From IMG/VR virus record IMGVR_UViG_2623620497_000008, positions 1-43,789 of that record: DNA of 43,789 bases; one strand, written 5' to 3'. Position numbers and translations under genes: made by a program. Origin of the DNA: a virus (Duplodnaviria > Heunggongvirae > Uroviricota > Caudoviricetes). The notes beneath the pieces were generated by a model. That model ran no database searches, had not been told where the DNA came from, and worked only from the letters and a program-made list of their open reading frames with translations. Every line of letters starts with the position of its first letter. Position 1 is the stretch's first letter. This document shows positions 36,108 to 38,671 of the stretch, piece by piece.

Positions 36108-36136
36108 AATATACATATTGTATTCTTTTCTTGCAA
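36108..36136 (-). promoter_or_regulatory. pR-like promoter: -35 TTGCAA (36131-36136), 17-bp spacer, -10 TATATT (36108-36113)
   Basis: Hexamers identical to the pL candidate; overlapped by operator site 1. Confidence 0.5.
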
Positions 36137-36182
36137 GGTAAATATACAAATTGTGACTCGAAGAAAGATATACAACTTGTAT
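36109..36182. promoter_or_regulatory. OR operator region: three repressor-binding sites with ATACA-N3-TGTAT symmetry (centres about 36117, 36150, 36176)
   Basis: ATATACATATTGTAT, ATACAAATTGTGA, ATACAACTTGTAT between cro and cI. Confidence 0.55.
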
Positions 36183-36191
36183 CATTTGGGT

Positions 36192-36851
36192 ATGAGCATG
36201 AAATGGTATGACCTAGCAAAGTCCCTCATGAAAACGAAGGGCATAAACCAGGAAGAGCTGGCAGAGCATCTCGGGATCACCAAAGGTGCCGTTAGTCATT
36301 GGCTAAACGCAAGGAGAGAGCCCAGCCTGGAGGACATAGCTAAAATTCTTCGCTTCCTCGGCAAGAATAATTTTTCTGTGGGTGCTGGCGGCATGATAAT
36401 TGATGAAAACATCAAGGGTGATGTTGAGTACGTTGGGCCCTATAAGCGCGGCAACGAATATCCAGTGCTTAGTAGTGTTCAGGCTGGATCGTGGCGAGAG
36501 GCTATAGAACCTTATTCCATCAAAGATGTTGATCTGTGGCTTGAGTCGAATGCACATATCCAAGGGGAAGCGTTCTGGCTGCTTGTTGAAGGCGATTCCA
36601 TGACGTCACCAGTCGGGCTAAGCATTCCAGAGGGTACCTACGTTTTGTTTGATACCGGCCGAGAGCCAGTAAATGGCAGCCTTGTGATCGCAAAGCTATC
36701 CGAATCAAACGAAGCGACATTCAAAAAGCTGATTATTGATGGGGGCCAAAAGTACCTGAAGGGCTTAAACCCTCAATGGCCATTGGTTCCCATCAACGGA
36801 AACTGTCGAATCATTGGTGTGGCCGTAGAAACTAAGTTAAGGCTTGTGTGA
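36192..36851 (+). CDS. cI: CI-like repressor (N-terminal HTH, C-terminal S24 LexA-like autopeptidase domain)
   Basis: HTH (QEELAEHLGITKGAVSHWLN), Ala-Gly cleavage site, GDSM serine and downstream Lys; ATG 36192 likely leaderless (track ORF begins at GTG 36153). Confidence 0.8.
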   Translation: MSMKWYDLAKSLMKTKGINQEELAEHLGITKGAVSHWLNARREPSLEDIAKILRFLGKNNFSVGAGGMIIDENIKGDVEYVGPYKRGNEYPVLSSVQAGSWREAIEPYSIKDVDLWLESNAHIQGEAFWLLVEGDSMTSPVGLSIPEGTYVLFDTGREPVNGSLVIAKLSESNEATFKKLIIDGGQKYLKGLNPQWPLVPINGNCRIIGVAVETKLRLV

Positions 36852-36861
36852 TCGGCAGCAT

Positions 36862-36888
36862 GCCGCAGACGTACAGGAAGCATGGGTA
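36862..36888 (+). repeat. 27-bp direct repeat copy 1 (GCCGCAGACGTACAGGAAGCATGGGTA), contains SD-like AGGAAG plus ATG
   Basis: 26/27 identity with copy at 37065-37091. Confidence 0.5.
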
Positions 36889-36911
36889 AAGCTTTAGCAC
36901 GCAGAGGAAGC

Positions 36912-37031
36912 ATGTCTGATCTGATTATCCCAATACTCATTACTTTACTGATTATCGGACTGGTTGGGATAGTGCTCAGGCTGGATAAGATTTTCTTCAA
37001 GCGAAGGGATGAGCGGGATGACTTTGAGTGA
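36912..37031 (+). CDS. small hydrophobic peptide (39 aa; 49 aa if started at ATG 36882)
   Basis: MSDLIIPILITLLIIGLVGIVLRLDKIFFKRRDERDDFE; AGGAAGC SD; flanked by the 27-bp repeats. Confidence 0.35.
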   Translation: MSDLIIPILITLLIIGLVGIVLRLDKIFFKRRDERDDFE

Positions 37032-37064
37032 GCCAGACCGGTAGTTCGATGTGTTTTTGGTAAT

Positions 37065-37091
37065 GCCGAAGACGTACAGGAAGCATGGGTA
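37065..37091 (+). repeat. 27-bp direct repeat copy 2 (GCCGAAGACGTACAGGAAGCATGGGTA)
   Basis: See copy 1. Confidence 0.5.
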
Positions 37092-37250
37092 GCCATCAGC
37101 CTATCGAAGCGATTAAGTAATTTTTATGACCACTATCTTTCAAAGGTTGATGCTTAGTGTATGATGAGTTTAAAGCCGTATATGCTTAATTACGTGTCAA
37201 CATATTTTTGTAAGATCCGGTCAGATTGTTCCTTTTTTGAGCAACTCTAG

Positions 37251-37279
37251 TTGAAAACCTCTTTGAGGGATCCTATATA
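37251..37279 (+). promoter_or_regulatory. sigma70-like promoter: -35 TTGAAA, 17-bp spacer, -10 TATATA, upstream of the acidic two-gene cassette
   Basis: Good hexamers, but the -10 abuts the AAGGAG SD, so the TSS/start codon relationship is unresolved. Confidence 0.35.
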
Positions 37280-37292
37280 AGGAGTATAGTTA

Positions 37293-37658
37293 GTGACCCG
37301 AAACCCTGGAGATGAATCCGTTGAAGTTTTGCATAAAAGAGCAGTAGCGCGGTTTAACTCTCTTACTTATGCAATCATCGGTGAAATCAGTTCTATGCTC
37401 AGCAAGGCCAAATTATTGCCAATTCCTGAGCTACAGTTGAACAACCCTACATTCGAAGAGGTTGTTTCACAGTTAAGACTTTATCGCGCCCTATCCGAAA
37501 AAGTCGCTGAGTTGTTAAAAATTGATAGGAAAGATGAACTAGCTGAGCTTGACGCGTACATCGAGCTCGCAGATGACTTGGCTCAAGCCATTGTAGCTGA
37601 CAATCCTGAAGGGTTGTGCGCCGCCATAGCTGCTTTGGATGAGAAGCCATACGTATAA
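37293..37658 (+). CDS. acidic helical hypothetical protein (121 aa), rex-position cassette gene A
   Basis: GTG start with AAGGAG 8 nt upstream. Confidence 0.5.
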   Translation: MTRNPGDESVEVLHKRAVARFNSLTYAIIGEISSMLSKAKLLPIPELQLNNPTFEEVVSQLRLYRALSEKVAELLKIDRKDELAELDAYIELADDLAQAIVADNPEGLCAAIAALDEKPYV

Positions 37659-37675
37659 CAAACGAGGAGCACACG

Positions 37676-37804
37676 ATGGAAAACCGTTACGACTTTGAGA
37701 CCGTATTCGCACTGCTGAACGAAATGGAAGCATGCCTGAATAACGTTCGCCGACTGAATGCCCAGTTGGATGAAAGTCTGCGAGCTATTCCACTGGCAGC
37801 TTAA
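37676..37804 (+). CDS. small acidic helical protein (42 aa), cassette gene B
   Basis: ATG with GAGGAG 6 nt upstream, 18 nt after the gene A stop. Confidence 0.45.
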   Translation: MENRYDFETVFALLNEMEACLNNVRRLNAQLDESLRAIPLAA

Positions 37805-37835
37805 CATATCAGCAGCTATTAGAAATTCATCCAGA

Positions 37836-37863
37836 CCCGGCGCGGCCCCCGCGCCGGGTTTTT
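37836..37863 (+). terminator. strong rho-independent terminator (10-bp GC stem CCCGGCGCGG / CCGCGCCGGG, 3-nt loop, T5)
   Basis: Perfect inverted repeat 31 nt after the gene B stop. Confidence 0.65.
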
Positions 37864-38023
37864 ACTGCCTTCCGATCCATATCGGACAGCACCCGACCAC
37901 CAACACAAGCAATTGATTATTTAGAAAATATCTACTTTTTATCTTCATTTGCCCACTATTTGAACATCGCCCCGATCCCCATGGTTAACGGCATCACTGC
38001 TGGCTAGCTGTTGACTACCGGCC

Positions 38024-38227
38024 CTACTCTTCCCTCAGCATCAGCACGTCCAGTGCCAGCTCCACAGTCAGTTCTACCCTGTTTCCCTGCCACAGCACCT
38101 GAATCATCTCTATCAGCGCCTCTCTTAATGGCTCGCGCTTCTCAACCAGCAGTTGCATAACCGCTATCCCGATAACCTGCGCTATCTGTGGGTGCATCTC
38201 TGCGAAAAACTCATCCTCATTCGACAT
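38024..38227 (-). CDS. acidic hypothetical protein (67 aa) transcribed divergently from the OL/pL region
   Basis: ATG 38225-38227 with AGAGGG SD. Confidence 0.45.
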   Translation of the reverse strand: MSNEDEFFAEMHPQIAQVIGIAVMQLLVEKREPLREALIEMIQVLWQGNRVELTVELALDVLMLREE

Positions 38228-38293
38228 GGCGCTACCCTCTTTGGCGTTTTTTTGAGCTTACCAGCACGCTTTACAAAAATAAACCTCCATAGA

Positions 38294-38365
38294 ATACAAA
38301 ATGTTATCTTGAGAAGCAAAAATAAGTATACGTATTGTATTGCAAGTAATGAATACGTTTTGTAT
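38294..38365. promoter_or_regulatory. OL operator region: three sites ATACA-N3-TGTTA, ATACG-N3-TGTAT, ATACG-N3-TGTAT (centres about 38300, 38334, 38359)
   Basis: Same half-site consensus and similar spacing (34 and 25 bp) as OR. Confidence 0.55.
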
Positions 38366-38368
38366 ATT
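38340..38368 (+). promoter_or_regulatory. pL-like promoter: -35 TTGCAA, 17-bp spacer, -10 TATATT, overlapped by operator sites
   Basis: Consensus-like hexamers directing transcription toward gam-bet-exo-xis-int. Confidence 0.55.
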
Positions 38369-38447
38369 CACCTCACCCAAACAACACCGGCAACGCCGGG
38401 GTGAAGTCAAAACGTCCCGTTAGCCGCGATAAGGCAAAGGTGAAGAG

Positions 38448-38564
38448 ATGATCCGCGAAGAAGATAAAACTGAGTGGTTTAAGTTTCTGGCACACGCATT
38501 CGCCATCGTCGTATGCGTACTGATAGCAAGCGCGTTCTGCCTGATGCCTGGTGGTTCAGCATGA
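38448..38564 (+). CDS. small membrane peptide (38 aa), first ORF downstream of pL
   Basis: AGGTGA SD; MIREEDKTEWFKFLAHAFAIVVCVLIASAFCLMPGGSA. Confidence 0.35.
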   Translation: MIREEDKTEWFKFLAHAFAIVVCVLIASAFCLMPGGSA

Positions 38565-38671
38565 GCAGAAATGGCATTCGTTCACTGATTTACTGCCTGC
38601 TGATCTGCGGCGTTATCTGGACAGCGTTGATTATCAAAATTCTGCACGTTACGGGGGTGTTCAATGGTTAG
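38561..38671 (+). CDS. small membrane peptide (36 aa)
   Basis: ATGA overlap with the previous ORF. Confidence 0.3.
   Translation: MSRNGIRSLIYCLLICGVIWTALIIKILHVTGVFNG

Follow-up and report, generated by a model that had tools for sequence, protein, structure and literature searches.

What does a pair of small genes do when it occupies the prophage slot in which lambda carries rexAB? The interval between cI and N is a classic hotspot for prophage genes that protect or manipulate the host, a mosaic stretch that holds the abortive-infection systems RexAB and BstA (PMC8585504). We examined a compact, uncharacterised occupant of this interval in a 43,789-nucleotide sequence of a virus of the Caudoviricetes (IMG/VR record IMGVR_UViG_2623620497_000008, positions 1 to 43,789; hereafter the window), which is a lambdoid Klebsiella prophage oriented opposite to the lambda map. 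The cassette comprises a gene for a 121-residue protein (gene A, ORF121) and a closely following gene for a 42-residue protein (gene B, ORF42). A preliminary description had delimited it at 37251–37863, and its parts are correctly placed: both open reading frames (ORFs), a promoter-like block and a hairpin with five T residues. What appear to be the most informative features had been missed, namely the obligate pairing of the genes, the Ala-Ala end of the small protein and the C-terminal motif of the large one. Our tentative answer, possible if short of probable on the sequences at hand, is a toxin-antitoxin-like or abortive-infection (exclusion) switch timed by a labile peptide.

A conserved gene pair

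A word-seeded search with ORF121 gave 46 homologous clusters, and a full profile scan of 1.84 billion representatives gave only 68, whose members are stand-alone proteins of ~105–140 aa from Enterobacterales, Vibrio and metagenomes. ORF42 is too short a query and retrieved five close clusters only. At 23 of 23 loci, a small ORF of 36–45 aa follows the large one with a gap of −4 to +37 nt, and these include large proteins only 20–25% identical to ORF121. The small ORF has pN values of 0.09–0.19 vs pS values of 0.45–0.86 (for example, 0.09 vs 0.45, 0.10 vs 0.66 and 0.19 vs 0.86) and is under purifying selection. The pair is a true protein-coding unit whose members are obligately paired and co-evolve.

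Such data bear on the simplest alternative, that the cassette is non-functional, its ORFs being chance or decaying and its conservation reflecting recent spread. Most database copies are indeed near-identical, and two carry a frameshift. Against this, the family extends down to ~20% identity over Enterobacterales, Vibrio and metagenomic lineages, always with its partner, and to the selection on the small ORF are added confident AlphaFold2 models. We regard this explanation as very improbable and, as far as the sequences go, effectively refuted already.

The cassette is present in 98 of 5,426 complete E. coli genomes (~2%, O103 strains included), and the exact Klebsiella ORF42 sequence occurs on ~1,000 contigs. 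Phage and plasmid collections yielded one record each: Proteus phage Pm34 among 50,697 phage records and a 2-kb record among 72,556 plasmid records. The annotation is hypothetical in every source, and our literature searches found no description of the cassette or of its PHROG. Pfam, NCBIfam and PADLOC contained no family match for either protein, PHROGs offered families of unknown function only, and the 44 family members examined gave no Pfam or NCBIfam family, with one stray weak AbiU2 match among them. That the cassette belongs to no known family, as had been suspected, therefore holds; the sole match, PHROG 13858 (E = 1.2e-38 to ORF121, and also matched by 27 of the 44 members), has no assigned function. 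The cassette represents a new family in a familiar type of locus, the prophage accessory module in the immunity region.

The small protein and its Ala-Ala end

AlphaFold2 models ORF42 as one helix (residues 7–37, pLDDT 88.5) with a flexible five-residue tail beyond it, IPLAA-COOH. Its conserved hydrophobic residues occupy a/d heptad positions and the hydrophobic moment is greatest at 103 degrees; this amphipathic arrangement points to a helix that needs a partner surface. ORF42 has no transmembrane segment (maximum 19-residue hydropathy, 0.43). The two proteins probably form a complex.

The C-terminus of the small protein is the most telling feature of the cassette. It reads Ala-Ala-COOH in 21 of 23 loci (LAA, KAA or QAA) and Ile-Ala in the other two, and an AA ending is likewise seen in the partner encoded by Klebsiella phage RAH1 and in the most distant partners, the rest of these peptides being unalignable. 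Ten different codon pairs encode the terminal Ala-Ala, which indicates selection at the amino-acid level. ClpXP recognises the ssrA tag chiefly through its Ala-Ala-COO−, and its substrates include further cellular proteins with this ending (PMC7652416). We infer that the Ala-Ala-COOH end is a predicted ClpX-type degron, and the balance of our judgement leans slightly toward free ORF42 being labile through ClpXP.

The large protein

Both proteins had been called helical, and the models agree. The predicted fold of ORF121 has four main helices in a bundle (pLDDT 89.9, pTM 0.80), and the protein has no transmembrane segment (maximum 19-residue hydropathy, 1.05); the model describes a generic four-helix bundle, presumably cytoplasmic. 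Its GTG start is backed by the conserved N-terminus MTQNP, and the reading frame from GTG is kept through N-terminal length variation and indels. A supposed separate form, represented by 87-aa "truncated" homologues, was rejected, since these reflect the start chosen by the gene caller or a 1-nt deletion.

Two motifs are conserved in ORF121, GEISSMLxKAKLxP and the C-terminal AIAALDEKPY[IV]. Across the wider family, conservation narrows to L47, P52, an LQxExP[ST][FY] turn and the extreme C-terminus, LDx[KR][PS][FY][ILV]. No polar residue is invariant in the wide-family alignment, which argues for a binding protein rather than an enzyme. Likewise, two family alignments contained no invariant Arg or His and lacked the HEPN Rx4-6H motif.

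The preliminary description had called the pair strongly acidic and considered a DNA mimic or an anti-restriction factor. Both proteins are acidic in the window (ORF121: pI 4.62, net charge −8; ORF42: pI 4.49, net charge −3), but the charge of ORF121 is modest, ranking as the sixth most negative density among 66 greedy window ORFs, and the acidity of the small partner is not conserved (pI 4.2–9.6 across homologues). With a family median pI of 4.8 and net charge of −7 for the large protein, acidity is a weak family trait of that protein only. An anti-defence factor, whether DNA mimic, anti-restriction or anti-CRISPR-like, that shields the prophage or incoming phage DNA would fit this mild family-wide acidity and a small, helical protein of unknown family behind a compact, strong-looking expression signal. 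The idea fares poorly on the details: charge density is only −0.066 per residue in a window where 29% of ORFs have a pI below 5, well below that of classic DNA mimics such as Ocr and ArdA; the second gene encodes a 42-aa single helix rather than a helix-turn-helix (HTH) Aca-like partner; and early anti-restriction functions do not usually occupy a lysogen-expressed position. The DNA-mimic proposal does not survive the charge data, and we consider the anti-defence explanation as a whole improbable.

A second alternative gives the pair a host-directed role in lysogenic conversion, loosely like TomB-Hha: the bundle would bind some host regulator, for instance a sigma factor or nucleoid protein or a partner that is redox-sensitive, and the Cys-bearing helix would modulate this binding. 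YmoB is among the fold matches of ORF121; the match is generic, and YmoB ranks only 25th among the bundles retrieved. Homology to TomB/YmoB was rejected at an hhalign probability of 1.2%, using a query that we take to be TomB and that was validated against YmoB (PDB 2mn2). This lack of profile similarity, the absence of the Cys from some distant small partners and the single, non-Hha-like helix of the small protein all stand against a regulator or sequestration module of this type, which we judge unlikely.

A possible lysogen switch

We return to the switch proposed at the outset. The pair would be made in the lysogen, from read-through of pRM and/or from its own conserved promoter block. The small peptide would bind the presumably stable bundle protein and, when free, would be turned over continually, so that the module would read the cell's capacity for continued protein synthesis. 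If synthesis were shut off or the protease balance shifted, as upon superinfection or loss of the element, the bundle protein would be released and would bind a host or phage target. Which member of the pair acts as the effector is speculative.

Two observations give weak hints in this direction. Independent copies at two loci have a frameshifted large gene beside an intact small one: L012 (1673–1695) and L055 (~2980), the latter through a 1-nt deletion at codon 28. In addition, the pair at L047 (6001–6523, from a metagenome-assembled genome labelled Saprospiraceae) lies among DUF4365, HNH_5 and FRG-domain genes, and the FRG protein, 4.5 kb from the pair, matches the PADLOC candidate defence family PDC-S15 (E = 5e-51). 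This neighbourhood is defence-island-like and does not belong to a prophage.

Several points weigh on the other side. Neither protein matched a PADLOC defence model, and no toxic activity, membrane domain or DNA-binding domain can be recognised in either. With its mild acidity, the bundle resembles an inhibitor or antitoxin more than it does a toxin. The frameshifts could be errors of assembly or real inactivation. The Ala-Ala end could serve partner binding instead of degradation, and expression in the lysogen from the cassette's own promoter is something we only infer.

A further step would be to regard the pair as a new class of prophage switch, with a micro-protein bearing an ssrA-like degron as timer and a non-enzymatic four-helix bundle as effector. 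We hold this to be more doubtful than the switch itself. If true, lysogens would gain abortive infection or exclusion, or prophage addiction, from the rexAB slot with no known toxin fold.

The cassette as cargo

The rex-equivalent position noticed previously holds, and the cassette acts like mobile cargo. Klebsiella phage 2 LV-2017 matches the window at 36848–37046 (96%), 37843–37869, 38021–38065 and 38368–38670 (98%), and between flanks of 96–98% identity it is missing ~800 bp that comprise the second copy of a direct repeat, a spacer, the promoter block, both genes and most of the hairpin. This presence and absence in homologous phages establishes the cassette, at the sequence level, as accessory cargo (a "moron") in the slot between cI and the immunity terminator.

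In the loci compared, a co-oriented S24 repressor lies 200–400 nt upstream of the pair. These repressors represent at least 11 distinct sequence types, with identities to the window cI ranging from undetectable to 99%. The order in E. coli O103 is LexA-family cI, the pair, the N-position gene and sieB, and Hafnia and Proteus phages have the repressor and then the pair. In V. cholerae (L002–L004, 4250–10300), the pair occupies the edge of a non-lambdoid element next to fur and is oriented convergently with an S24 repressor. The latter diverges from genes for a PyocinActivator-like protein and a gpA/G2P-type replication protein, and the element is possibly inovirus-like or a satellite. Elsewhere, the pair adjoins an integrase (L050) or, on metagenomic contigs, lies near P2-type gpD (L049) or near DUF551 and SRAP (L046).

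These settings bear on a third alternative, in which the pair would tune the phage's own lysis-lysogeny decision through host proteolysis. The degron-tailed peptide would serve ClpXP as a decoy, as a competitive substrate or, together with the bundle protein, as an adaptor, and phage or host regulators (O, repressor fragments or antitoxins, for example) would become more or less stable in consequence, much as lambda CIII acts on FtsH. The conserved Ala-Ala end and the short, CIII-like amphipathic helix would suit this role, as would the cassette's place within the immunity operon and, in lambdoids and the Vibrio element alike, its tight linkage to S24 repressors. Distant family members do not adjoin repressors, however; the lambdoid cassette is swapped among immunity types, as befits cargo rather than core circuitry; and related phages manage without it. 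We therefore think a proteolysis-tuning role unlikely.

Phage RAH1 (L001, 3390–4010) has the same promoter block, GTG context and terminator as the window and carries a different pair, of 125 and 40 aa, with a mosaic junction at the first codons and a small protein ending in KAA. Support is lacking for this pair as a distant homologue (hhalign probabilities of 0.2–1.7% with a RAH1-free profile).

Expression of the pair

The promoter-like block (37251–37290) is conserved across loci. Among enterobacterial copies, conservation covers ~43 nt before the start codon (consensus TTGAAAA-N-TTGAnnGnTCCTATATAAGGAGTATAGTTAGTGACCC), in copies whose synonymous sites are saturated and whose DNA further upstream is unrelated. 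Two hexamer pairs can be read within it. P-a keeps TTGnAA in every aligned locus, including Proteus, and its −10 lacks the usual final T; its predicted +1 lies past the Shine-Dalgarno sequence, 7 nt short of the GTG. P-b takes the general form TTGnnn-16/17-TA[TG][AG][AG]T, in which TTG and TAnnnT are invariant over 13 loci, and its predicted +1 falls just past the GTG.

A promoter scan of 2.9 kb gave 4 sites vs 4.0 expected from shuffled sequence, which is the level of chance, so that support for a promoter comes from conservation of the block across loci and not from the scan match. The sigma70-like promoter claimed in the preliminary description thus stands as a conserved block, but its hexamer match does not exceed chance and neither hexamer pair would yield an mRNA that retains the Shine-Dalgarno sequence. 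Since the GAG of that Shine-Dalgarno sequence is invariant in the alignment, a longer transcript is implied, most simply by read-through from pRM. The sequence scan revealed no terminator-like site on the + strand from the cI stop to the cassette, which makes both read-through and expression in the lysogen plausible. The claim of lysogen expression is to that extent upheld, whereas the contribution of a dedicated promoter is putative.

Two other loci bear on a local start. At L045 (5880–5985), the block is kept with a perfect TATAAT, the GTG has become a TTG that opens an 11-codon upstream ORF, and the family protein begins ~60 nt further on, at an ATG; this arrangement fits P-b as a working promoter. 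The upstream gene in the Vibrio copy is divergent, on the opposite strand, so a local promoter must exist there. We speculate that P-b might make an RNA from which only gene B is translated, giving an excess of B over A. In lambda, pLIT favours rexB and provides the model for such a transcript.

An operator-like sequence, ATATAAGGAGTAT (37275–37287), has one mismatch to the phage operator pattern and lies within a CTATA-N7-TATAG inverted repeat; another one-mismatch site lies at 37150–37162. Both were set aside as probably due to chance, since the block travels with many different repressors.

The immunity terminator

The 10-bp GC-stem hairpin with T5 noted earlier is present, formed by CCCGGCGCGG / CCGCGCCGGG at 37836–37858 with the T run at 37859–37863, and its fold has a predicted energy of −27.5 kcal/mol (z = −3.6). 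A hairpin and T run lie downstream of the cassette in 21 of 22 evaluable loci. A terminator segment of ~50 nt from the E. coli copy is found again in 858 of 5,426 E. coli genomes, some of which have it under the end of a gene annotated "protein rexB", and a lambda lysogen has the same terminator sequence exactly at the rexB stop, before N. Alignment revealed one element, ACCCGGCC-N4-GCCGGGTTTT..GCC, that recurs in five contexts: behind rexB, behind each of the E. coli, window and RAH1 cassettes, and directly behind the 49-aa ORF of the cassette-less Klebsiella phage. The lambdoid terminator is therefore that of the immunity region, and the suggestion that it is the cassette's own does not hold, as it also follows rexB and occurs in a phage that lacks the cassette.

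Layout of the locus

The coordinates of the features are collected in Table 1. Six cI operators, three in OR and three in OL, together with a pL whose hexamers are identical to those of pR, confirm the position of the slot between cI and OL/pL that had been called rex-equivalent. The minus strand of the window holds the replication genes, cII and cro. An Rfam scan of 36800–38500 returned sub-threshold noise only.

Table 1. Positions of the cassette and of surrounding features in the window
Feature	Position	Strand	Remark
OR operators, three, ATACA-N-TGTAT	36108–36183		
cI-type repressor (HTH_3 + Peptidase_S24)	36153–36851	+	Upstream of cassette, co-oriented
49-aa ORF, single-pass membrane	36882–37031		Directly after cI
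Indel cargo, approximate extent	37047–37842	+	Relative to cassette-less Klebsiella phage 2 LV-2017 (L058)
P-a, TTGAAA (37251–56), 17 nt, TATATA (37274–79)	37251–37279	+	Predicted +1 near 37286
P-b, TTGAGG, 16 nt, TATAGT	37263–37290	+	9/12 matches; predicted +1 near 37296–97
Shine-Dalgarno AAGGAG of ORF121	37279–37284	+	8 nt before GTG
ORF121 (gene A), 121 aa, GTG start	37293–37658	+	
Shine-Dalgarno GAGGAG of ORF42	37664–37669	+	6 nt before ATG
ORF42 (gene B), 42 aa	37676–37804	+	17 nt after ORF121
Intrinsic terminator, 10-bp GC stem, CCC loop, T5	37836–37863	+	
67-aa ORF	38024–38227	−	Between immunity terminator and OL/pL
OL operators, three, ATACA-N-TGTAT, plus pL	38291–38368		Downstream bound of slot
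pL, TTGCAA-17-TATATT	38340–38368		Hexamers identical to pR

The third OR operator (36170–36182) lies inside the GTG-started cI ORF, and the true start of cI is therefore probably the ATG at 36192 or 36198. A 29-nt direct repeat (36860–36888 and 37063–37091, 97% identical) brackets the 49-aa membrane ORF. It encodes MPQTYRKHG*, the C-terminus of a differing, S24-only repressor found in phages RAH1 and 2 LV-2017, and on this account looks like a recombination scar that marks a second small cargo unit.

The 67-aa ORF is acidic (pI 4.4), matches PHROG 3946 (unknown function) and is divergent from pL. Its conservation is 91% in RAH1 and 52% in L045, Hafnia prophages have an ORF of equal size at this place, and phage 2 LV-2017 retains a 45-nt remnant only. 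The first ORFs past pL (38448–38671) encode two small hydrophobic peptides, with no obvious N-type antiterminator among them. L055, a near-identical prophage, has KilR, GamL, RecT and YqaJ further along.

Implications

The family is well defined and experimentally tractable. Its small size makes the pair easily tested, it is clinically widespread and common in Klebsiella, and the Ala-Ala end on a 42-aa protein offers a concrete handle on ClpXP dependence. Were it to act in defence or addiction, the known modules would be joined by a family in which no toxin or sensor domain can be recognised, and the pair could explain differences in phage resistance among Klebsiella and E. coli lysogens that are relevant to phage therapy. 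With no phenotype, it would be an ordinary hypothetical moron.

Comparison with known systems

The downstream HTH gene of the anti-CRISPR/Aca operon is absent here, and ORF42 has no HTH match. TomB-Hha and YmoB-YmoA share with the cassette an acidic four-helix bundle of ~120 aa encoded directly upstream of a small, helical, Cys-containing protein. Those pairs occupy a chromosomal locus, however, whereas the pair described here lies in a phage immunity region and its second member is a 42-aa single helix with an Ala-Ala end. Type II toxin-antitoxin systems with a protease-labile antitoxin likewise consist of two small, tightly coupled neighbouring genes carried by mobile elements, and one product has a degron-like end; here, no known toxin or antitoxin fold or family is recognised, autoregulation would lack a DNA-binding domain and the large partner is an acidic protein.

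Lambda CIII, the FtsH inhibitor, is also a short amphipathic helix of a temperate phage that points to a host AAA+ protease. It sits in the pL early operon and no homology to ORF42 was found; ORF42 differs in its ClpX-type Ala-Ala end, its invariable pairing with a bundle protein and its place in the immunity operon. BstA occupies a hotspot downstream of many prophage repressor types and is followed by a terminator (PMC8585504), as is the cassette. BstA is described as localising to phage DNA replication sites (PMC8585504). The short, unusually conserved stretch at the gene start and just before it recalls the aba element of bstA in position alone, and BstA is one protein, in contrast to two small helical proteins with no homology to it.

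Lambda rexA-rexB and the cassette have no sequence relationship, and neither PADLOC nor Pfam matched the cassette. RexA has 279 aa and RexB spans the membrane several times, whereas both proteins here are small, soluble and helical. What they have in common is a two-gene unit that follows cI in the same slot and orientation and runs up to a homologous terminator, and co-transcription with the repressor is plausible for the cassette as well.

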